From Rhodobacterales bacterium (GTDB taxonomy: Bacteria > Pseudomonadota > Alphaproteobacteria > Rhodobacterales > CAZPXZ01), in the NCBI GenBank assembly GCA_965217995.1, contig CBDCKB010000004.1, positions 1,283,788 to 1,347,787 on the forward strand: a stretch of DNA of 64,000 nt. Reading direction: 5' to 3'. Numbering within the stretch: position 1 is the first letter of the stretch; every line of letters begins with the position of its first letter. This document shows, piece after piece, positions 5,732-50,812 of the stretch. Position numbers and translations under genes: made by a program. Under the pieces are notes generated by a model. The model made no database searches, had not been told where the DNA came from, and saw only the letters and a list, made by a program, of their open reading frames with translations.

Positions 5732-7072
5732 TCAGTTCTCTTGGATTGCGGTGTCCAGGACGGTCAGGATATCCTGGGCGCGGTGCCAGGTCGGGGACCC
5801 TTCGGTCGAGGCCGATTGGGCACGCTGCGCGAAGCGGACCGCGGAGGCGGCATCGCCAAGGATCAATCGCTCCTCGGCGGTCATCAGTGCCGCATGGGCC
5901 TCGTCGCCGACGCGGGCGAACGCGACGGCCAGCAGGCGCCGGGACGCCGGATCAAGATCATCCTTGGCTACTGCGCGCTTGAGGACCGCGCGCGCTTCGT
6001 CGTCGGCTTCCCGGGTCTGCAGGGAGAGCAGTGCCTGGCCCAGGCTGGTGAGGATCAGTGGCTCGTCGGGTGCCAGTTCAACGGCCCGACGGTAGGAGAG
6101 GACGGCCGGGCCAGTTGCCCCGCTCTCGAACAGGATCTGGCCCCGCAGCTCGTGATAGTAGGGATCGTCGGGGCGTTTCTGCAGCAATCGGTCGACCGTG
6201 GCGATGGCACCCTCCCGGTTGCCGGCCCGATGCCGGGCGATGGCGAGGCCGAGGAGGGCTTCTTCGGTATCGCTCCCTGCATAGCGGGCTTCCGCCTCGG
6301 CCGGAATTCTGGCAAGGAACGCACCCAGCTTGGTGCGTATCCGGGCGTAGCGGTAGTCTAGATCTGCATCCGTTCCGGCCCCGCGCTGCGGTGATTTGTC
6401 AACGAGATTCTGCAGGTTGCGAATCCGCTCGCTGGCGATGGGATGGCTGAGCGCGTAGGGATCGAGATCGCCGTAGGTTTCCTGCGTGCGACGTAGCATG
6501 TGCATCAATGTGAGTAGTGCGACCGGGTCGACACCGCTCTTTTCCAGAAAACCGACCCCCTCGGTGTCGGCCGAGGTCTCTTCGTTGCGGGTGTAGCGCA
6601 GGAATGTCTGCTGGGCGATCTGCTGCGAGGCCGTAGCTCCGGCGATCACCAATTCCGGTTGTCCGCCGACGATTCCGAAGAGCAGTGCGAGAGCCGTGAA
6701 GGCACTCGCCTGTGACAGGGCAGTGGTATATTGCTCGATACGCCGGATCACATGGCCGCTGGAGATATGCGCGGTTTCATGGGCAATGACCGAGAGCAGT
6801 ACGGGATAGGTTTCGCTGGCTTCGACCAGGCCGCTGTTGAGAAAAATACGGTTGTCGCCGGTCGCGACGGCGTTGATGCCGCGCGCATTGACGACCGCGA
6901 TGTGTACGGTTTCCGGGTCGAGGCCGGCGGCATGCAGCACCGGTTCCGACATGTCCCGGATTACGGCTTCGATTTCTGCATCGCGGATCAGCCACCCGCT
7001 GGCCGCCACCGGTGCTGCATGCCACATGCAGGCGATGGTTGCAGCCAAAATTCCGACGACGAGGCGGTTCAT
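5732..7072 (-). CDS. M48-family zinc metalloprotease with C-terminal TPR repeats
   Basis: The real start is the Met of MNRLVVGILAATIACMWHAAPVAASG (signal peptide), at 7072. The HExxH motif is present (IAHETAHISSGH), and the C-terminal half is TPR-like. The 781-aa track ORF extends upstream only because it runs antisense-frame through the rne repeats. Confidence 0.85.
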   Translation of the reverse strand: MNRLVVGILAATIACMWHAAPVAASGWLIRDAEIEAVIRDMSEPVLHAAGLDPETVHIAVVNARGINAVATGDNRIFLNSGLVEASETYPVLLSVIAHETAHISSGHVIRRIEQYTTALSQASAFTALALLFGIVGGQPELVIAGATASQQIAQQTFLRYTRNEETSADTEGVGFLEKSGVDPVALLTLMHMLRRTQETYGDLDPYALSHPIASERIRNLQNLVDKSPQRGAGTDADLDYRYARIRTKLGAFLARIPAEAEARYAGSDTEEALLGLAIARHRAGNREGAIATVDRLLQKRPDDPYYHELRGQILFESGATGPAVLSYRRAVELAPDEPLILTSLGQALLSLQTREADDEARAVLKRAVAKDDLDPASRRLLAVAFARVGDEAHAALMTAEERLILGDAASAVRFAQRAQSASTEGSPTWHRAQDILTVLDTAIQEN

Positions 7073-7133
7073 GCGCCGGGGTTCGGTGCGAATGCCCATA
7101 TCTGCGGCCCCGTCCTGGTGCATCCTCTTGCCG

Positions 7134-10016
7134 CTAGGGCTGGGGATCTCCCGGCAGGGGCTTTGCCCCGACGGGAAAAGCGGGATTCCCGTCATCCAGG
7201 GAGTCGCTTTCCCACGGGCGCGCGGGCGAAAAACCGTCCTTTTTCGCGGTGCGCAGGGGCCGCCGTCTTCCGCGCCCGCCCGCCCGGGGGGCGCTTTCCG
7301 ACGGGGGTGCGCTGCCCCGCGGGTGCGCTGGCGGAAAATCATCCTCTTCCTTGTTGCGCAGGGGGCGCCGCCTTCCGCGTCCACCTTCCCGGGGGGCGCT
7401 TTCCGACGGGGGTGCGCTGTCCCGCGGGTGCGCTGGCGGGAAATCATCCTCTTCCTCGTTGCGCAGGGGCCGCCGTCTTCCGCGTCCACCCTCTCGGGGG
7501 GCGCTTTCCGACAGGGGTGCGCTGTCCCGCGGGTGCGCTGGCGGGAAATCATCCTCTTCCTCGTTGCGCAGGGGCCGTCGTCTTCCGCGTCCACCTTCCC
7601 GGGGGGCGCTTTCCGACAGGGATGCGCTGTCCCGCGGGTGCGCTGGCGGGAAATCATCCTCTTCCTCGTTGCGCAGGGGCCGTCGTCTTCCGCGTCCACC
7701 TTCCCGGGGGGCGCTTTCCGACAGGGGTGCGCTGTCCCGCGGGTGCGCGGGCGGGAAATCATCCTCTTCCTCGTTGCGCAGGGGCCGTCGTCTTCCGCGT
7801 CCACCTTCCCGGGGGGTGCTTTCCGACAGGGATGCGCTGTCCCGCGGGTGCGCTGGCGGGAAATCATCCTCTTCCTCGTTGCGCAGGGGCCGCCGTCTTC
7901 CGCGTCCACCCTCTCGGGGGGCGCTTTCCGACAGGGGTGCGCTGTCCCGCGGGTGCGCTGGCGGGAAATCATCCTCTTCCTCGTTGCGCAGGGGCCGTCG
8001 TCTTCCGCGTCCACCTTCCCGGGGGGCGCTTTCCGACAGGGATGCGCTGTCCCGCGGGTGCGCTGGCGGGAAATCATCCTCTTCCTCGTTGCGCAGGGGC
8101 CGCCGTCTTCCGCGTTCGCCCTCTAGAGGAGCGCTTTCCAACGGGGGAGCTGGCGAAACATCGTCCTCTCCCTCGCTGGGCCGCCGCCGTCCGCGCCCGC
8201 CGCGCCGGCTCCGGCGCCGCCGGCCGGAGCGGTCTGCGTCTCCCGCAGAATCCCGCGCTTCGCCCTCGCGGGTCTCCTCTTCCTCGTCGTCGGGAGACTC
8301 TTCCGTGCGGCTGCGTTCGGGCCGTTCCCTGCTGTCCTGCGGTTCGGTCCGGGTGGGCGGTTCGGCGCGATCCATCTGGCCGCCCCAGGAAAGATCGACT
8401 TTTCCGGCCTGCATGGAGGGATCTGCTGCGATCTCGATCTGCACCCCGTGCCGTTCCTCGATCACGTTGAGCGTCATGCGTTTGGTGTTGCTCAGGAAAT
8501 TGGCGACCCCGACGGAGACACGGAGCTTGGCGCGGCTTCCGGAGTGGGTGGCTGCCTGCTCCTCGGCCTGGCGCAAGGCGGACAGTCCGAAGGAGGCGTC
8601 GGTACGCATCCGTCCGCTTCCCGCACAATGCGGGCAGGGCTCGGTGGACATTTCCAGCATGCCTTTTTTGAGGCGCTGGCGGGACATTTCGAGAAGGCCG
8701 AAACCGGAAATCTGTCCGATCTGGCCCCGGGCCCGATCTGATTTCAGACATTCCTTCAGTCGGCTTTCCACGGCCCGGCGGTTGCGTCCGACATCCATGT
8801 CGATGAAGTCGATGACGATCAGGCCGGAAATATCCCGCAGCTGAAGCTGGCGGGCGACCTCCTCGGCCGCCTCGAGATTGGTATGCAGGGCCGTGTTTTC
8901 GATGTTCCGTTCCTTGGTGGAACGGCCGGAATTGACATCGATGCAGGTCATCGCCTCGACCGGTTCGAGGACGATCCAGCCTCCCGAGGGCAGCCGCACC
9001 TCCGGGTCGAAAAGCGCATCCAGCTGGTGGTCGACCTTGTGGCGGACGAAAATCTGGGTCTTTTCGTTGTATTGCTTGATGTTTTTCGCATGCGACGGCA
9101 TGAGCAGGCGCATGTACTGCTTGGCGTCGCGATAGGCGTCGTCGCCGTCGATCTGGATTGCGTCCATGTCCTTGTCATAGAGATCCCGGATCGCGCGGCG
9201 GATCAGACTGCTTTCCTCATGGATCAGACAGGGGGCATAGGATTCGAGTGTGGTGGTACGGATTTCCTCCCACTGCTTGAGAAGTGCCGCATAGTCACGC
9301 TTGATCTCGGCCTTGGTACGCTCGGAGCCGGCGGTGCGGATGATCACCCCGTGTTCGGGGGCGACGTCGAGCTCCTGGACGATGCTCTTCAGCCGGGTGC
9401 GGTTCTTCGAGGTGTCGATCTTGCGCGAGATCCCGCCCCCGCGGGCGGTGTTGGGGGCCAGCACGCAGTAGCGGCCGGCCAGCGACAGATAGGTGGTCAG
9501 GGCCGCGCCCTTGTTCCCCCGCGGCTCGCGGTAGATCTGCACCAGGAGAACCTGCCGCCGCTTGATGACCTCCTGGATGGCGTAATTCTTGGCCCGCGGC
9601 GGAGGCGGTCGGTTGATTTTCTCTTCTTCTTCTTCCGCATCAGGGTCGGGTTCATTCGCGGATTCGGTTTCGTTCCCTGTCTCGGAAGGCGGGGTGTCGT
9701 GGTCTTCACTTTCCCGTTCCGCATCGGCCGCCTTGCGGTCTTCGCGCAGCAGTACCTGCCGGTCGTGATCCGGAATCTGGTAGTAGTCCGGATGGATGTC
9801 GGGTAGCGCGAGAAACCCGTCCCGCTCGCCGCCATAATCGACAAAAGCGGCCTGCAGGGCCGGTTCTACATGCACTACGCGCGCAAGATAGATGTTTCCG
9901 CTGAGTTGCGCGTTCGCCTTGGCGTCGAATTCGAATGCGGTTAGGCGGCCATTGTTGATAATCGCTACCCGAGTTTCCTCGGGGTGGGCCGCGTCGATGA
10001 GCATTTGTTTTGCCAT
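7134..10016 (-). CDS. rne: Ribonuclease E
   Basis: Start at MAKQMLIDAAHPEETRVAIINNGRLTAFEFD (ATG 10016). It has the S1 and catalytic domains (GNIYLARVVHVEPALQAAFVDYG..., LVIDFIDM, CPHCAGSGR zinc link) and a long Arg- and acid-rich C-terminal region containing the repeats below. 960 aa. Confidence 0.93.
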   Translation of the reverse strand: MAKQMLIDAAHPEETRVAIINNGRLTAFEFDAKANAQLSGNIYLARVVHVEPALQAAFVDYGGERDGFLALPDIHPDYYQIPDHDRQVLLREDRKAADAERESEDHDTPPSETGNETESANEPDPDAEEEEEKINRPPPPRAKNYAIQEVIKRRQVLLVQIYREPRGNKGAALTTYLSLAGRYCVLAPNTARGGGISRKIDTSKNRTRLKSIVQELDVAPEHGVIIRTAGSERTKAEIKRDYAALLKQWEEIRTTTLESYAPCLIHEESSLIRRAIRDLYDKDMDAIQIDGDDAYRDAKQYMRLLMPSHAKNIKQYNEKTQIFVRHKVDHQLDALFDPEVRLPSGGWIVLEPVEAMTCIDVNSGRSTKERNIENTALHTNLEAAEEVARQLQLRDISGLIVIDFIDMDVGRNRRAVESRLKECLKSDRARGQIGQISGFGLLEMSRQRLKKGMLEMSTEPCPHCAGSGRMRTDASFGLSALRQAEEQAATHSGSRAKLRVSVGVANFLSNTKRMTLNVIEERHGVQIEIAADPSMQAGKVDLSWGGQMDRAEPPTRTEPQDSRERPERSRTEESPDDEEEETREGEARDSAGDADRSGRRRRSRRGGRGRRRPSEGEDDVSPAPPLESAPLEGERGRRRPLRNEEEDDFPPAHPRDSASLSESAPREGGRGRRRPLRNEEEDDFPPAHPRDSAPLSESAPREGGRGRRRPLRNEEEDDFPPAHPRDSASLSESTPREGGRGRRRPLRNEEEDDFPPAHPRDSAPLSESAPREGGRGRRRPLRNEEEDDFPPAHPRDSASLSESAPREGGRGRRRPLRNEEEDDFPPAHPRDSAPLSESAPREGGRGRRRPLRNEEEDDFPPAHPRDSAPPSESAPREGGRGRRRPLRNKEEDDFPPAHPRGSAPPSESAPRAGGRGRRRPLRTAKKDGFSPARPWESDSLDDGNPAFPVGAKPLPGDPQP
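7194..8138 (-). repeat. Nine in-frame tandem 105-bp (35-aa) repeats within the rne C-terminal region
   Basis: The landmark aaatcatcct recurs at 7441, 7546, 7651, 7756, 7861, 7966 and 8071, giving a 105-bp period. The peptide unit is ESAPREGGRGRRRPLRNEEEDDFPPAHPRDSA(S/P)LS. Eight copies are well conserved and one C-terminal copy is degenerate. Confidence 0.95.
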
Positions 10017-10384
10017 TGTTCCTGCCGGGAGCGCACAAGGGCGCTCCGCTTTGTCCAGGCATGGGAGCCATGTTCGAAGACTGCGCCGGGGCGCGTCAGA
10101 AGAAATGAGGCCATCATGCGTCCTCGGTGCCGTCGTGCAGCGCACGACGCCTGATTGGAAGGCGCGGGACGATGCCCGCAACCATGTTGCATCCGCCAAA
10201 CCACAGACCCGAATCGGGTGGGGAATTCGCGGGTGCAGGATCATCCCATAAAAAATGGGCGAAATCACGGCGGCGCGGGGACGGAAACTCCAAGAGGCTT
10301 TCCTGAAACCAAAATCCGCGCAACCACTGCGTTATTTGGGGAGGATAAGGCATTTCTGTCCCAAAGCAAGCCGCTTTGTCACGA

Positions 10385-12841: not shown

Positions 12842-13939
12842 ATGGTATTTCCAATGGCCTCAGGACAGCAATCTCAGGCAACCTTTCGGCACAAACCCCG
12901 GCATGATGCCTGTTACAAGCAGCTCTTTGACCATGCGGTGGTGGTCAAAGATCTGATCTCCGGATTCATAGCTCCGCATCTGAGTGATAAGTTTAATTTT
13001 TCCACACTGGAAAAAGTCCCGTCCTCTTACGTAAGCAACAGCCTGAAGCAGCGTCACATCGACCGGGTCTGGCGCGTCCGCCTTCGTGGCAGCGGCCGGT
13101 GGCTGTACATCCTGCTGGAATTCCAGTCCACGGTCGATCTGCTCATGGGGGTGCGCATGCTGACCTATATCGGGCTGCTGTATGAGGATATTTGCCGGAA
13201 CAAGGCGAATCTCGGGCCGCAGGGCGAACTTCCGGAGATATGGCCGATTGTTCTCTTCAACGGCGACACGCCGTGGACTGCACCGCTCACTATCAATGCG
13301 GTGGCACTGACCCGGGGCGATGGGCATCGGGATCAAGTGTTCCCGGAGTATTTTGTGTTCTGCCAACAGGAGTATCCGTTGGACGATTTGCCACCGGACA
13401 ATGTTGTATCGCTCCTGATCAGACTGGAACGAATACCCCGGTCCGGCGCACCGATGGACCAGCTGCTGGATGATATCAGGGCATGGTTACGGAAATTTGA
13501 CAAGGATGATTACACCCGGCAGAGTCTCATCAGGGCGATTAGCAACTGGGTTGGGGAGTATCTGATGCTGAAAGACAAAATTGACTCCAGTCTTGATCCG
13601 TGGGATCAGCTGGAGCGGATGCAGAACCTCGCGATGAATTGGGAAGCCCCGGAATGGGCGCAGGGATGGCTTGAGGAAGGGCTTGCGAAAGGCCGGACGG
13701 AAGGCCGGACGGAAGGGATCGAGGAAGGGATCGAAAAAGGCCGGACGGAAGTGCTGGGGGCAATTCGGAAGAGTCTGTACCTTCAGGCCGGGTCGAGATT
13801 TGATCCGGAAACGGTCGGCCGGCTGACCCAGCATCTGGATCAGGTATCCGATCCGGAGCGGCTGTTGGAGATTTCCGGGAAGATCCACGAAGGCGCAACC
13901 TGTGCCGCGCTTCTCAAATGTCTCAAAAACCGATCATAG
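12842..13939 (+). CDS. Rpn-family recombination-promoting nuclease (YhgA-like PD-(D/E)XK, annotated 'putative transposase' in some databases)
   Basis: ATG 12842 within ORF 12680..13939. The N-terminal half (HDACYKQLFDH..VVKDLISGF...IDRVWRVRL...WLYILLEFQSTVD..MGVRMLTYIGLLYE...LPEIWPIVLFNGDTPW) matches the Rpn/YhgA-like nuclease core pattern. The C-terminal third is a separate Lys/Glu/Arg-rich domain. Confidence 0.85.
   Translation: MVFPMASGQQSQATFRHKPRHDACYKQLFDHAVVVKDLISGFIAPHLSDKFNFSTLEKVPSSYVSNSLKQRHIDRVWRVRLRGSGRWLYILLEFQSTVDLLMGVRMLTYIGLLYEDICRNKANLGPQGELPEIWPIVLFNGDTPWTAPLTINAVALTRGDGHRDQVFPEYFVFCQQEYPLDDLPPDNVVSLLIRLERIPRSGAPMDQLLDDIRAWLRKFDKDDYTRQSLIRAISNWVGEYLMLKDKIDSSLDPWDQLERMQNLAMNWEAPEWAQGWLEEGLAKGRTEGRTEGIEEGIEKGRTEVLGAIRKSLYLQAGSRFDPETVGRLTQHLDQVSDPERLLEISGKIHEGATCAALLKCLKNRS
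13553..13567 (+). promoter_or_regulatory. Internal Shine-Dalgarno-like GGGGAG plus in-frame ATG inside the rpn gene (candidate RpnS-type internal start)
   Basis: GGGGAG at 13553-13558 lies 6 nt upstream of the in-frame ATG at 13565 (codon 242 of 365). The identical element (14018-14032) precedes the free-standing duplicate ORF. Confidence 0.35.
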
Positions 13940-14029: not shown

Positions 14030-14440
14030 ATGCTGAAAGACAAAATTGACTCCAGTCTTGATCCGTGGGATCAGCTGGAGCGGATGCAGAACCTCGCGAT
14101 GAATTGGGAAGCCCCGGAATGGGCGCAGGGATGGCTTGAGGAAGGGCTTGCGAAAGGCCGGACGGAAGGCCGGACGGAAGGGATCGAAAAAGGCCGGACG
14201 GAAGGGATCGAAAAAGGCCGGACGGAAGGGATCGAAAAAGGCCGGACGGAAGTGCTGGGGGCAATTCGGAAGAGTCTGTACCTTCAGGCCGGGTCGAGAT
14301 TTGATCCGGAAACGGTCGGCCGGCTGACCCAGCATCTGGATCAGGTATCCGATCCGGAGCGGCTGTTGGAGATTTTCGGGAAGATCCACGAAGGCGCAAC
14401 CTGTGCCGCGCTGCTCAAATGTATCAAAAACCGATCATAG
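14030..14440 (+). CDS. Free-standing duplicate of the Rpn C-terminal domain (136 aa)
   Basis: MLKDKIDSSLDPWDQLERMQNLAMNWEAPEWAQGWLEEGLAKGRTEG... is collinear with Rpn residues 242-365. It keeps the SD-like GGGGAG upstream and contains three GIEKGRTE units where the parent has EGIEEGIEKGRTE. I cannot tell from sequence whether it is expressed or is only a duplication remnant. Confidence 0.55.
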   Translation: MLKDKIDSSLDPWDQLERMQNLAMNWEAPEWAQGWLEEGLAKGRTEGRTEGIEKGRTEGIEKGRTEGIEKGRTEVLGAIRKSLYLQAGSRFDPETVGRLTQHLDQVSDPERLLEIFGKIHEGATCAALLKCIKNRS

Positions 14441-46456: not shown

Positions 46457-46840
46457 TCAGTTTTCCGGTTCTTCGAGCGGGGTGACCTTGACCGGATCCA
46501 CCGGCGCCGCGATGAACGCGGCACCGTCCTCCTCGCCGATATAGTCGGAGGCGGGGACGATGAGGGCCTGGCCGATCCGGACGCTGTAGGACCCGTCCAG
46601 ACGGTTGGCCTCCCGCAGGGCCTGCGGCGGGATTGCGTAGAGATGCGAGAGGGTGAAGACCGATTCGCCGGGTTCGATGATATGCATCCGCTCCCTCCCC
46701 CGTAGCGGCCGCCAGGGTTTTCCGAGCGGTGTGTCGGAGGTTGCGGTGGTACCGGCCGTCAGGAAGAACGGGGCACAGCCCGACAGGGGTGCCAGGCAGA
46801 GGATGCCGGCGGCGAGAAGAAGGACGGAGCGGGTCAGCAG
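46457..46840 (-). CDS. LysM-domain lipoprotein; start codon unresolved
   Basis: It has a lipobox (LLLAAGILCLAPLSGC) and a LysM domain (HIIEPGESVFTLSHLYAIPPQALREANRLDGSYSVRIGQALIVP). No ATG, GTG or TTG sits just upstream of the signal peptide. The options are CTG at 46840/46837, or GTG at 46936 with a ~100-nt overlap of surE. Confidence 0.65.
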   Translation of the reverse strand: MLTRSVLLLAAGILCLAPLSGCAPFFLTAGTTATSDTPLGKPWRPLRGRERMHIIEPGESVFTLSHLYAIPPQALREANRLDGSYSVRIGQALIVPASDYIGEEDGAAFIAAPVDPVKVTPLEEPEN

Positions 46841-47619
46841 TCGAACTCGATCGCCGCTGCAATATCCGGCTTGATTCGCGCATGTGCGGTGATGTCGGTG
46901 GTGATGGGGGTGGCCGTGATCCAGCCTTCGGAGCACAGATTCTGATCGCAGTTCTGGTCCGGTACAGGCTCGTCCGGGTTGTAGGCGAGCCAGTAGTAGT
47001 CGGCACTTAGGCGGGGGCTGTGCGCCGGTGCCGGGCGCAGGGCACTCTCCGGACGCATTCCTGCCGGCGCGAGGCGCAGCCCCCGGGCCCCCCCGGTCGG
47101 GCGGGCCGGAAAATTGACGTTGAAGCAGGCACGCGGGAGGCTGTTTGCGGACAGCAGGCGGCGGACCACCGCCGCGCCATGCTCGCGCGCCGGGGCGAAG
47201 ATGTCGTTCTGGTCGCTGCCGGTTCCGAAACCCTGGCTCAGCGCGATGCCGATCGTGCCGCGCAGGGAGGCTTCGATGGCGGCGGCGACGGTGCCGGAAA
47301 TCAGCACGTCATTGGCGACATTGCGGCCGTAATTGACGCCCGTGAGGACCAAATCAGGGGGCTGTCCTTCCAGGAACGTTTCCACGCCCATGATCACGCA
47401 GTCGGCGGGCGTGCCGTCGACCGAGTAGCGGCGCTCGCGGATCTTGCGGGTGCGGATGACCGAGGTGTAGGTCAGGGCATGTCCGGCGCCGCTGTGGTTG
47501 GTCTGGGGGGCGACGGTCCAGATCTCGCCGTCGGGGCCGGCGATCTCGCGGGCGATCTCCTCCGCCACCACCAGCCCCGGGGCGTCGATTCCGTCGTCAT
47601 TGGCGATCAGTATCCGCAT
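46834..47619 (-). CDS. surE: 5'/3'-nucleotidase SurE
   Basis: Start at MRILIANDDGIDAPG (47619). It also contains PQTNHSGAGHALT and GTPADCV. Confidence 0.93.
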   Translation of the reverse strand: MRILIANDDGIDAPGLVVAEEIAREIAGPDGEIWTVAPQTNHSGAGHALTYTSVIRTRKIRERRYSVDGTPADCVIMGVETFLEGQPPDLVLTGVNYGRNVANDVLISGTVAAAIEASLRGTIGIALSQGFGTGSDQNDIFAPAREHGAAVVRRLLSANSLPRACFNVNFPARPTGGARGLRLAPAGMRPESALRPAPAHSPRLSADYYWLAYNPDEPVPDQNCDQNLCSEGWITATPITTDITAHARIKPDIAAAIEFDC

Positions 47620-47620
47620 T

Positions 47621-49906
47621 TCAGGCTTTTCCTGCGAGTGAACCGTCGGGATCGATCCGCCGCGCACCCCCCATATAGGGGCCGAGGACGGGCGGCAGAT
47701 CGATGCCACCGTCTTCGGTCTGTCCGTTCTCCATCACTGCGATCAGGGCCCGTCCGATCGCGACACCGGATCCGTTCAGGGTATGGACGAATTCTGGCTT
47801 CCCTCCGCCCGCCGGGCGGAAGCGTGCGTCCATCCGTCGGGCCTGGAAATCTCCGCAGGTCGAGCAGGAGGAAATTTCGCGATAGCGGCCCTGACCGGGC
47901 AGCCATGTCTCGATATCGTAGGTCATTCCGGCCGCAAAACCGAGATCCCCGGTGCAGAGTGCCACGGTTCGCCAGGGGAGGCCGAGGGCTTCGAGCACGC
48001 CTTCGGCACAGCCGGTCATGCGCTCGAGCTCCCCCGCCGAATCTTCCGGCCGGGTGATCGAGACGAGTTCCACTTTCTCGAATTGGTGCTGGCGGAGCAT
48101 GCCACGCGTATCCTGCCCGGCGGCCCCGGCCTCGGAACGGAAGCAGGAGGTCCAGGCGACATAGCGTTGCGGGAGCTGGCCGGAATCGAGCACCTGCCCG
48201 GAGACGAGATTGGTGAGGGGCACTTCCGCGGTCGGGATCAGCCAGTGTTCCCGCGTTGTCTGGTAGAGGTCATCGTGGAATTTCGGCAGCTGGCCCGTGC
48301 CCCGGAGGACCTCCGGCAGCACCAGCGCGGGCACCCAGATTTCCTCATAGCCGTTTTCTTCGACATGCCGGTCGAGCATGAAGCGGCCCAGGGCCTGGTG
48401 CAGGCGGGCCAGGGCACCGCGAAGCACAACGAACCGGGAACCGGACAGCCTTGCGGCCGTCGTGAAATCCATCAGCCCGAGGGCTTCGCCCAGCACAAAA
48501 TGCTCGCGCGGTGGATATCCGCGCTCCGGAATCGTGCCGTTGCGCCGCAATTCAAGATTGGCACTTTCGTTGACGCCATCCGGCACTCCGGCGAGCGGCA
48601 GGTTGGGAAGCTGTTCGAGTTCGGCGGCCAGATCGGCACTGCGTTCGCGGGCGGCCTGCTGCAGTTCCGAGAGTCTGTGGCGGGACTGCGCCATCCCGTC
48701 GCGGAGCTGGGTGAAGGCCGCCATCACCCTCGCAGAGGCCTGATGGGCCTGCTCGTAGGCGGCCCAGGTCTTACGGGCCTGCTCGTAGGCGGTCTCAAGC
48801 TGTTTGATGGCGGCCTGGGCCCGGGCCTTACTAGCCTGCTCGTAGGCGGTCTTGAGCTGTTTGATGGCGGCCCAGGACTTACGGGTCTGCTCGGAGGCGA
48901 TCTCGATCTGCTTGATGGCGGCCTGAGCTCGGGCCTTACGATCCTGCTCGGAGACGGTCTTGAGCTGTTTGATGGCGGCCCAGGCCTTACGGGCCTGCTC
49001 GGAGGCGGTCTCAAGCTGTTTGATGGCGGCCCGGGCCTTACGGGCCTGCTCGGAGGCGGTCTCGATCTGCTTGATGGCGGCCCGGGCCTTACGGGCCTGC
49101 TCGGAGGCGGTCTCGAGCTGCTTGATGGCGGCCCGAGCCCGGGCCTTACGGGCCTGCTCGGAGGCGGTCTCGAGCTGCTTGATGGCGGCCCGAGCCCGGG
49201 CCTTACGGGCCTGCTCGGAGGCGGTCTCGATCTGCTTGATGACGGCCCGGTCCCGGTCCTTACTAGCCTGTTCGGAGGCGGTCTCGAGCTGCTTGATGGT
49301 GGCCCAGGCCTTACGGGCCTGCTCGGAGGCGGTCTCAAGTTGTTTGATGACGGCCCAGGCCTTACTGGCCTGCTCGGAGGCGGTTTTGAGCTGTTTGACG
49401 GCGGCCCGGGCTCGGATATTGCGGGCCTGCTCGGAGGCGGTCTCGAGCTGTTTGATGATGGCCCAGGCTTTGCGGGCCTGCTCGGAGGCGGTCTCGAGCT
49501 GTTTGATGGCGGCCCGGGCCTTACTGGCCTGCTCGGAGGTGGTCTCGAGCTGCTTGATGGCGGCCCGGGCCTTACTGACCTGCTCGGAGGCGGTCTCGAG
49601 CTGTTTGATGGCGGCCCGGGCTTTGCTGGTCCGCTCTGAAGCGGCGTTACACGCCGCCTGTAGATTCTCGATCTGTTTGATGATGGCGTTGCGCGTCGCT
49701 TGCAGATCATCGATGGCGGCCCGGGCCCTGCGGGCCTGCTCGGTGGAGGCGTTGCGCCCCGCCTGCAGATTCTCGAGCTGTTCGATGGCGGCCCGTCGGG
49801 CGGTATCGAGCGTGAGAAGTCGGGTGGCCGCCGGCTCCAGCCCGAGACGGGCGAGAGCGGCATCGAAGAGATCGGGGTCGGCGCGGACGGCCCGTATGTC
49901 GATCAT
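47621..49906 (-). CDS. serS: Serine--tRNA ligase with a greatly expanded repetitive coiled-coil arm (761 aa)
   Basis: Start at [18 protein letters not shown] (ATG 49906). The class II core is intact ([46 protein letters not shown]). Residues ~58-400 are tandem repeats, described in the repeat feature and findings. Confidence 0.9.
48710..49735 (-). repeat. In-frame tandem 51/57-bp (17/19-aa) repeats inside serS: ~16 conserved units (48770..49621) plus degenerate flanking units
   Basis: gatggcggcc recurs at 48971 and 49022, and onward, giving a 51-bp period. The peptide unit is A(R/W)[15 protein letters not shown], with some units carrying an extra two residues (AR, IR or DR). Confidence 0.95.
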
Positions 49907-50047
49907 CGGGTCCTCCGGCGGCGAGATGTCTCGGAAGCGGCAAGAACCCCTATCATGCTGCGTTGCGCGGGGCTTGTCGAGAACCGCGCATTGACAGGAA
50001 ATCCGGCGGCAGGAAATTGCAGGACCGGAGCAGAAGGATTGAAGGTT

Positions 50048-50812
50048 ATGGCCGAACACGCGGGCCGGCGGGCGGTGGCCGAGGCTGCCGCGGAATGGGC
50101 GGCCGATATGGCGGAATCACTCGCCCCCGAGCCATTCCGACTCGGTCTTGGAAGCGGCAGTACGGCCGAGATGTTTCTCGCCGCGCTCGGTGCCATGCCC
50201 GGCAAGCGGATCGCCAATATCGTGGGCATGCCGAGTTCGAAGCGCGTCGAGACTCTGGCCCGAAAATCGAAGATCGTGGTCATGGATGCCACCGGGCCGT
50301 CCTGGCTGCATCTTGCCGTCGACGGTGCGGACGAGTTCGATCGGGATCTTGTGCTCATCAAGGGCGGGGGCGGAGCCTTGCTGCGCGAGAAGATTGTCGC
50401 CGAGGCAGCACTGGAGATCATTATCATTGCGGATGCGGGCAAACAGGTTGATAGGCTGGGCGCGTTCCCGTTGCCGGTGGAGATCTCGCCCTTCTATCCG
50501 GGTGCTACGCTCGACGCGATTCGCACCGAGCTCAAGGGCCTCAATTATGACATCGCAGACGAATGCGTGCGGCTGCGCAAGATCGAGGGCGAGCCCTTCG
50601 TCACCGACGGGGGCAATTGGATCGTCGATCTGGAACTCGGGTCGATCAAGGACCCGTGGCTGACAGATACGATTCTGTGCGGCGTTCCCGGCCTCTTGGC
50701 CACCGGCCTGTTCTGCGGGCTGGCGGACAGGGTGCTGGTCGGCCATGAGGATGGGGGGATCGATATCCTCGAGCCGGATCCGTCGGAGGATACGGACAGG
50801 CGGGAATCGTGA
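50048..50812 (+). CDS. rpiA: Ribose-5-phosphate isomerase A
   Basis: ATG 50048 within ORF 49700..50812. It contains [20 protein letters not shown] and [15 protein letters not shown]. Confidence 0.9.

Follow-up and report, generated by a model that had tools for sequence, protein, structure and literature searches.

An in-frame tandem-repeat expansion in the coiled-coil arm of a Rhodobacterales seryl-tRNA synthetase, variable in copy number among close relatives

The coiled-coil arm of seryl-tRNA synthetase (SerRS), a cytoplasmic enzyme, is a textbook case of tRNA recognition by shape, and to our knowledge the length of this arm is regarded as fixed across bacteria. Here we describe a serS gene in which the two helices of the arm are separated by a repetitive, in-frame insert of 328 residues. 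The gene lies in a 64,000-nucleotide stretch of a Rhodobacterales genome assembly (contig CBDCKB010000004.1), which as a whole we call the window. The insert was first pointed out in a reading of the DNA made without database searches, referred to below as the sequence-only reading.

Several described systems come near to this one. The SerRS arm binds tRNA across the dimer, and animal mitochondrial SerRS2-alpha/SLIMP has lost its coiled-coil arm (PMC10570016). Additions to SerRS are also known: basic C-terminal extensions in eukaryotes, UNE-S, Insertions I and II, and the mitochondrial N-helix and C-tail (PMC10817482, a 2024 review). Longer arms have been built by protein engineers. In chimeras of SerRS with the dynein stalk and microtubule-binding domain (SRS-dynein stalk/MTBD), 3 to 12 stalk heptads were grafted on the arm of T. 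thermophilus SerRS, and the products are soluble (PDB 3ERR; PMC6629372). Such fusions are soluble and folded, which is experimental proof that the tip of the arm is a permissive site for extension. In the literature we found no expansion of a bacterial SerRS arm. When aa 1-440 were compared by phmmer with 1.84 billion representative proteins, only two matches fell below 1e-10, both to unrelated repeat proteins, the rest being ordinary SerRS N-termini. The natural SerRS chains within the 50 best PDB matches have 359-474 residues. No described precedent for a repeat-extended SerRS arm was found, and the remark in the sequence-only reading that it was aware of no described SerRS with such an arm agrees with both the literature and the representative set.

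The gene and its conserved parts are the following. Their structure was predicted with AlphaFold2 (AF2), run for the 761-aa protein on a 66-sequence alignment; the confidence of the prediction is given as pLDDT (predicted local distance difference test), and dN/dS is the ratio of nonsynonymous to synonymous substitution rates.

47621..49906, minus strand: serS coding sequence, 761 codons and a stop, seryl-tRNA synthetase (list of open reading frames, translation, TIGR00414, PF00587/PF02403)
49911..49916, minus strand: ribosome-binding site GGAGGA, 4 nt 5' of the ATG at 49906 (inspection of the sequence)
49718..49906, minus strand: native N-terminal helices and ascending arm helix, aa 1-63 (Pfam Seryl_tRNA_N over aa 1-57, orthologue alignment, AF2 pLDDT 89-98)
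48611..48721, minus strand: native descending arm helix up to just before LPNLP, aa 396-432 (orthologue alignment, AF2 pLDDT 90-96)
47624..48610, minus strand: class II catalytic domain, aa 433-761 (PF00587, invariant columns, Foldseek, dN/dS 0.26 against the 692-aa allele described below)

On translation the serS frame has no internal stop, and the computed mass of the product is 83.3 kDa. We place its start at the ATG at 49906 and not at the upstream GTG at 50059, because the N-terminus (MIDIRA...) is that of all orthologues and GGAGGA stands 4 nt upstream. No leader has been added to this N-terminus, which is as in the cytoplasmic orthologues. The TIGR00414 serS equivalog profile scores 456 bits against a cut-off of 301.65 (aa 342-745, profile positions 21-418), and tRNA-synt_2b (PF00587) matches aa 551-727 with E 5.8e-37. 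All the columns that are invariant across 66 SerRS are kept, including FRSE, TAE, GSG..R and REISS. With the AF2 model as query, the top Foldseek matches are solved bacterial SerRS (E ~1e-43, TM(target) ~0.8). It is the arm that departs from the family. The Seryl_tRNA_N profile (PF02403) matches aa 1-57 only, which corresponds to profile positions 1-58 of 108; in place of a contiguous arm of ~100 residues there are two halves 328 residues apart, the descending half being at aa 396-432. The LPNLP motif accordingly stands at aa 433-437, versus ~105 in the 433-aa orthologues. The arm is thus present, but non-canonical in length and contiguity. All this agrees with the sequence-only reading, which had seen one uninterrupted 761-codon frame, an intact N-terminus, arm base and class II core, and LPNLP near residue 433; indeed its description proved right in every detail that could be checked. 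Judged by these matches, the 761-codon gene is most likely the ordinary, functional serS gene of the organism.

Between the two halves of the arm lie three segments:

49613..49717, minus strand: old degenerate units, aa 64-98, made of an 11-aa partial unit (aa 64-74) and a 24-aa unit (aa 75-98) (unit segmentation)
48761..49612, minus strand: main tandem array, aa 99-382, 16 units, ten of 51 bp/17 aa and six of 57 bp/19 aa (Tandem Repeats Finder, pattern search, codon alignment)
48722..48760, minus strand: degenerate last partial unit and junction, aa 383-395 (orthologue alignment, unit segmentation)

Relative to the 433-aa orthologues the insert comprises 328 aa, roughly 48722..49717, and so falls within the interval 48710..49735 delimited in the sequence-only reading. 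For 48758..49621 Tandem Repeats Finder gives a period of 51, with 16.2 copies, 82% matches and a score of 1019, and also higher-order periods of 108 and 159 bp. A 31-nt core pattern has 16 matches, versus none in 100 shuffles. The consensus of the main-array units ends in (RA)[RW]A, and the 19-aa variant results from a 6-bp insertion. All changes in unit length are multiples of 3 (72, 51, 57 and 33 bp). If the older 72-bp and partial units are counted with the 16 units of the array, there are ~18-19 units beyond the native segment. Neighbouring units reach a DNA identity of 0.98 in the middle of the array, and units at its edges are more diverged; near-identical central units with diverged edge units are the usual signature of unequal exchange or slippage. 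The window allele contains neither Gly nor Pro over a stretch of ~350 residues, which takes in the whole array. In the 433-aa orthologues the arm tip reads ...SKARAAGDE(T/A)(T/A)F..., the canonical tip being KARAAGDETTFTQLRDEM. The array takes the place of AGDETT, including the AGD turn, and the junction at aa 383-395 stands where the native hairpin turn would be. An in-frame expansion by 17- and 19-residue units, inserted between the ascending and the descending helix, is what had been read from the letters alone.

A protein search of a collection of 5.8 billion proteins returned a 692-aa SerRS with a related array (P0001) as well as 433-aa SerRS (P0002, P0003) that are 91-92% identical over the shared parts; the closest named SerRS, from Paracoccaceae, Roseovarius and Inquilinus, are 64-66% identical. 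The flanking DNA of the window is 97.5-97.9% identical to that of the canonical loci and 96.8-96.9% identical to that of the 692-aa locus. The gene order rpiA/gor-serS-surE-LysM-djlA-DUF815-tatC is common to the window and the four related loci, namely L001, L002 (692 aa), L003 and L004 (both 433 aa). Upstream of the 692-aa allele rpiA seemed at first to be missing, but this was a matter of gene calling only. Because the neighbourhood is the same and the flanks are 96.8-97.9% identical, we treat the 433-, 692- and 761-aa genes as alleles of one orthologous gene, and, as far as sequence identity defines it, they are alleles within one species-level population. One single sample is the source of the 692-aa allele and of two 433-aa alleles. 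Beyond the native segment the alleles carry no inserted unit (433 aa), 14 units (692 aa; 259 inserted residues) or ~18-19 units (window; 328 residues). Alignment with related genomes, which the sequence-only reading had proposed as a check, therefore finds the repeat present or absent and its copy number variable. With 82% matches overall and up to 98% DNA identity between neighbouring units, lengths divisible by 3 and a copy number that differs among relatives, the array is a variable number tandem repeat.

The 692-aa allele has four 24-aa units (the native one and three copies) and eleven 17-aa units, and these units are far more diverged. The derived 17-aa unit type is nevertheless common to both expanded alleles, with up to 94% DNA identity, and for this reason we consider the two arrays to be of common origin. 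Within aa 64-322 of the 692-aa allele (L002, 6190..6966) the units differ by 0.24 at synonymous sites and 0.22 at nonsynonymous sites (proportions of differences, pS and pN). In its last six units every second one ends in AG(D/A) (KAGD, EAGA, KAGD, KAGD), and this alternation produces a 34-aa super-repeat that contains the native hairpin-turn motif. A different fold, for example a helical zig-zag, may be among the possibilities for that part of the protein. A separate observation concerns the sequence next to the array. In the segments directly adjoining it (window 49718..49906 and 48611..48721) the four alleles reach their highest pairwise divergence, 8-11% per 150 nt, as compared to 1-3% over the 1.5 kb around. 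Between the two canonical alleles the rise is smaller (7 per 150 nt) and confined to the stretch that encodes the descending helix.

Where did the repeat come from? The sequence-only reading had left this open. A progenitor can be recognised in a 24-aa native segment, aa 40-63, within the ascending helix: the 17-aa unit is this segment minus one heptad (NLQAARN). The full 24-aa unit at aa 75-98 still has the heptad, as NLQAACN. Compared in DNA with the native segment and with their 24-aa counterparts in the 692-aa allele, the 24-aa units show 74-82% identity. The unit-to-progenitor alignments and the retained 24-aa intermediates are seen in both expanded alleles. By this sequence comparison, the repeat unit is derived from the enzyme's own ascending arm helix minus one heptad.

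Expanded and canonical alleles do not differ in the purifying selection on their catalytic core. Over 371 codons the expanded pair has a dN/dS of 0.257 and the canonical pair one of 0.262, with dS ~0.06-0.09. The repeat units, read in the serS frame, give a dN/dS of 0.61 for the window and 0.90 for the 692-aa allele, and because of these values we regard the repeat as close to neutral in sequence. Synonymous differences between units (AAA/AAG, CTC/CTT, CGT/CGC) do occur, as had been noticed from the letters, but the conclusion then drawn from them, that serS is the constrained frame, finds little backing in unit dN/dS values of 0.6-0.9, the antisense value being lower in the window. As a test of frame unit dN/dS is ambiguous and we rejected it, since the serS frame gives 0.61/0.90 (window/692-aa allele) and the antisense frame sharing its wobble positions gives 0.375/0.92. 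The GC content of third codon positions (GC3) in the serS frame is 0.85 in the repeat versus 0.76-0.81 elsewhere in the gene. The serS frame across the repeat is established by its context, and by the substitution pattern weakly.

What might the insert look like? AF2 predicts that aa 27-432 are helical apart from two breaks of low confidence, at 120-136 and at 319-321, which is consistent with the earlier suggestion of a helical insert. The pLDDT exceeds 70 in aa 1-90 and 361-432, so that the first and last repeats are confidently modelled as ~27 extra hairpin residues per strand. For the middle of the window protein the predicted topology is geometrically inconsistent and of low confidence, and we used it for the statement 'helical' only. 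In the 692-aa allele the model has helices at 27-113, 123-201 and 210-363 with pLDDT 55-70, and a turn at aa 202-209 within a Pro-containing 24-aa unit; the midpoint is ~195, as in one long hairpin. If the insert of the window is a hairpin too, there would be ~164 residues per strand, and at 1.5 Å per residue ~25 nm would be added to a native arm of ~5.5 nm, bringing it towards ~30 nm. The hydrophobic core positions of the unit (I2, L/I5, 9, A12 and 16) have a regular 3-4-3-4-3 spacing. Hydrophobic periodicity is strong in the 692-aa allele at 3.41 (= 17/5) and weaker in the window, at 3.35-3.5, where the strongest peak is 2.4. The insert contains 31% E+K+R, 25% Ala and 12% I+L. We considered a single alpha-helix (SAH/ER-K) domain and rejected it, as E+K+R is only 31% and a regular hydrophobic stripe is present. 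With a net charge of +27 (window) and +25 (692-aa allele), the insert differs from the native arm, which has -3. The isoelectric point (pI) of the whole protein is 5.30 for the 433-aa form versus 9.55 and 9.46 for the 761- and 692-aa forms.

The explanation that we favour, with a probability of roughly 0.6, is that the expansion is a tolerated length polymorphism, driven by recombination or slippage, at a structurally permissive site of a functional SerRS. The last 24 residues of the native ascending helix were first duplicated as a 72-bp unit. One copy then lost exactly one heptad (21 bp), giving a more basic 17-aa unit with an (S/R)KARA end, and this 51-bp unit was amplified together with its 57-bp variant. 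Slipped-strand mispairing or unequal recombination is indicated both by the 108- and 159-bp periods and by the near-identity of the central units. As a result, alleles of 433, 692 and 761 aa coexist in one population of ~97-98% identity. The insert would probably form a continuous alpha-helix that lengthens the antiparallel arm, and it could be tolerated because the arm tip, a permissive graft site, points into solvent beyond the surface that contacts tRNA. Selection may keep the frame, helix-compatible residues and the hydrophobic stripe, while the units otherwise drift, and the extension would be a largely neutral passenger that serylation does not need. Its presence in some and absence in others of these ~97-98% identical genomes indicates that the expansion is not needed for enzyme function in the lineage.

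There are, however, several points that speak against this explanation. The units of the 692-aa allele differ by pS 0.24 though the genomes differ by 2-3%, which means that the array is older than a neutral, deletion-prone repeat should be, or that it mutates unusually fast. It may be an old balanced or introgressed allele, or there may be repeat-associated hypermutation. Both expanded alleles independently keep their positive charge (+27 and +25, with the pI going from 5.3 to ~9.5), and this looks maintained. Some 330 extra residues in a housekeeping enzyme should also be costly. Finally, the predicted helices of the window protein, 27-119, 137-318 and 322-432 (93, 182 and 111 residues, the middle one of low confidence), are not compatible with a simple hairpin. 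The array also has no Gly or Pro to mark a turn, and the native AGD turn has been lost.

Some of these points would be expected if the extension were an adaptive appended domain, that is, a long basic helical rod for non-specific binding of RNA or other polyanions, or for scaffolding or oligomerisation of SerRS. We consider this possible, though not probable. Such a rod may raise local tRNA capture or tether SerRS to ribosomes, the nucleoid or RNA-rich bodies, with its length tuning the effect. The charges of +27 and +25 have arisen from very different unit sequences on an arm whose native charge is -3, taking the pI from 5.30 to 9.5, and the amplified unit is more basic than the progenitor (AIEQ to AIKQ, S to R). 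Even at pS 0.24 the 692-aa units still keep A1, I2, K3, Q4, I/L5, Q11, A12, K14 and A15. Basic appended extensions are an established theme in eukaryotic aminoacyl-tRNA synthetases, including the C-terminal extension of SerRS (PMC10817482), and lysine repeats raise the processivity of Streptomyces TopA (PMC5714199). On the other hand, the rod is dispensable, since 433-aa alleles coexist with the expanded ones in 97-98% identical genomes and within one sample, and the units have a dN/dS near 1. Synonymous sites at the conserved unit positions are conserved too, and for that reason recent common descent or gene conversion accounts for these positions no less well than selection. Moreover, a second, unrelated protein, RNase E (described below), has the same kind of repeat turnover. 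That the arm tip is a length-variable basic helical rod of tens of nanometres with a function of its own, polymorphic alongside a canonical allele, is a suggestion that we make with more doubt than belief. The same degree of doubt attaches to that proposal taken jointly with its candidate functions, namely non-specific tethering to RNA or ribosomes, partitioning into condensates and higher-order assembly. If it is true, minisatellite dynamics would have produced in a bacterium an equivalent of the domains appended to synthetases in eukaryotes.

Far less likely is that the 761-aa copy is a decaying or neofunctionalised paralogue, the housekeeping role being played by a canonical serS elsewhere. 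The window contains no second serS, and this absence covers 64 kb of the genome only, which leaves some room for the idea. Yet the gene shares its serS-surE neighbourhood with the canonical 433-aa genes of the sister genomes, the core dN/dS of the expanded pair (0.257) equals that of the canonical pair (0.262), the invariant residues are all kept and the TIGR00414 equivalog score is far above its cut-off. The sequence-only reading had named a decaying paralogue as a way in which it could be wrong; synteny, core constraint and intact residues lead us to reject it.

It had also named an assembly artefact. Tandem arrays are a classic assembly problem, and one of the two records with the exact 761-codon gene has, by its contig name, 3x coverage. 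But the array is present in a second record (L001), in which 16 of 11,630 flanking bases differ from the window while the 2286-bp serS gene, array included, is identical; because of these 16 differences we regard L001 as a separate assembly. The related 259-aa array of the 692-aa allele sits on a 24x contig. The frame stays open over 1 kb, and the array has structured variants (51- and 57-bp units, degeneration at its edges, 24-aa relics). The names of the contigs also seem to be in the style of a long-read assembler. A mis-expanded repeat is therefore an explanation to which we give next to no credence.

We give equally little to the idea that an overlapping plus-strand gene maintains the repeat (the 618-aa frame 47783..49639 or the 344-aa frame 48960..49994): both plus-strand frames are long and open through the array, and the wobble-sharing frame has a dN/dS of 0.375 among window units versus 0.61 in the serS frame, but antisense frames are equally open over the non-repeated core (one stop per 330 codons), as expected from a GC3 of ~0.8, the same frame has a dN/dS of 0.92 in the 692-aa allele, and the products are of low complexity, exist only with the repeat and are missing from the canonical alleles. 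The two antisense products (47783..49639, plus strand, 618 aa; 48960..49994, plus strand, 344 aa) consist of Gly/Leu-rich or Cys/Ala-rich repeats. As genes they were rejected, high GC3 and a stop-free unit being enough to account for them. A mechanism like that of diversity-generating retroelements, or phase variation, was considered too; nothing in its support was noticed, though the idea was not followed further.

Downstream of serS there is one further feature to be listed:

46834..47619, minus strand: surE, whose start lies 2 nt after the serS stop (gene tables of L001-L004, list of open reading frames)

No tRNA-Ser gene was found in the 64-kb window or in the related loci.

The window contains other repeats. 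RNase E (PF10150 and a thioredoxin-like domain; 7134..10268, minus strand) has a C-terminal in-frame array at 7197..8147 made of nine 105-bp (35-aa) units, PRDSAPLSESAPREGGRGRRRPLRNEEEDDFPPAH, with 93% identity. Its orthologue on the contig with the 692-aa SerRS allele is shorter by exactly 70 aa (2 units), and the RNase E of a third relative has a shorter unit variant. The closest named RNase E, from Parvibaculum, Thermopetrobacter and Devosia, are 52-56% identical. Since the RNase E copy number varies too, at least two housekeeping genes of the lineage, serS and RNase E, undergo in-frame repeat turnover, and the comparison suggests that this is a lineage-wide tendency. A 781-aa open reading frame (5732..8077, minus strand) overlaps the RNase E repeat in another frame, and the N-terminal part that it takes from the repeat is probably spurious. 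The start of the real gene is likely to lie downstream of the array, and by its HExxH motif the gene may encode a putative M48-type peptidase with TPR-like repeats. Perfect short tandem arrays occur at 14166..14252 and 13689..13716, formed by a 24-bp unit (AAGGCCGGACGGAAGGGATCGAAA, 3.6 copies) and by a 12-bp unit (AAGGCCGGACGG, 2.3 copies), the latter at two places ~470 bp apart.

Further searches for the repeat itself returned nothing related. The pure repeat (284 aa) had no match among the 5.8 billion proteins, not even the 692-aa allele, so this result is not evidence of absence; it is most likely due to the correction for composition and repeats in HMMER. A 24-nt unit pattern gave five single matches in JGI metagenomes, all in unrelated open reading frames and attributable to chance. 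A scan of genome contigs with mostly repeat-derived patterns found distant SerRS cores only (34-53% identity), with no close relative and no repeat.

Whatever the extension does, the alleles form a natural length series (0, 259 and 328 extra residues on a near-identical enzyme). Such a series would allow a direct test of the share of the arm in the selection of tRNA-Ser, and of whether a bacterial synthetase can gain an appended module for RNA binding or scaffolding. It would also mean that an essential single-copy housekeeping gene can carry a kilobase-scale in-frame repeat polymorphism within one population. This is of relevance to the question of how new protein domains arise and to the annotation of long-read metagenomes.

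How does this SerRS compare with what is already known? With canonical bacterial SerRS (PDB 1SRY/1SER from T. thermophilus, 6R1M from E. coli and 6HDZ from P. aeruginosa) it shares the core, the N-terminal helices and the base of the arm, at 49-55% identity to the solved enzymes and a Foldseek E of ~1e-43. It differs in its 328 extra residues at the tip, so that aa 27-432 comprise ~406 residues where ~78 are normal, and in being basic (pI 9.55) where canonical SerRS is acidic (pI 5.3).

Among the additions to SerRS in eukaryotes, Insertion I of higher eukaryotes (G75-N97) is similar in being a lineage-specific addition in the tRNA-binding domain, and the C-terminal extensions are similar in being basic. 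Insertion I, however, is 23 aa long, non-repetitive and fixed in a large clade, and the basic extensions are terminal. None of these additions is bacterial, is a tandem array or varies in length within a species. SerRS2-alpha/SLIMP is another illustration that the arm is evolutionarily plastic, but there the change was a loss and not an expansion, and it was accompanied by gene duplication and heterodimer formation. Streptomyces TopA (PMC5714199) likewise has basic repeats appended to a housekeeping enzyme that acts on nucleic acid, although these are C-terminal and short. In 'Periscope proteins' (PMC8201768) length varies among close relatives by means of in-frame repeats that are highly identical in DNA, as it does here. 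Those proteins are at the cell surface and are built of beta-rich domains, whereas here a helical insert lies inside a cytoplasmic aminoacyl-tRNA synthetase; SerRS is neither a cell-surface nor a secreted carrier.

The closest precedent in function is engineered, namely the SRS-dynein chimeras. They too have an antiparallel coiled coil at the arm tip, of up to ~85+82 residues plus a domain, and are soluble and folded. They are artificial, with a foreign sequence and a terminal globular domain, and serylation was neither their purpose nor assayed in them. The natural insert has about twice the length of theirs, and it is repetitive and made from the arm's own sequence. The serS alleles described here may thus be regarded as a natural counterpart to the SerRS-arm fusion scaffold of protein engineering.

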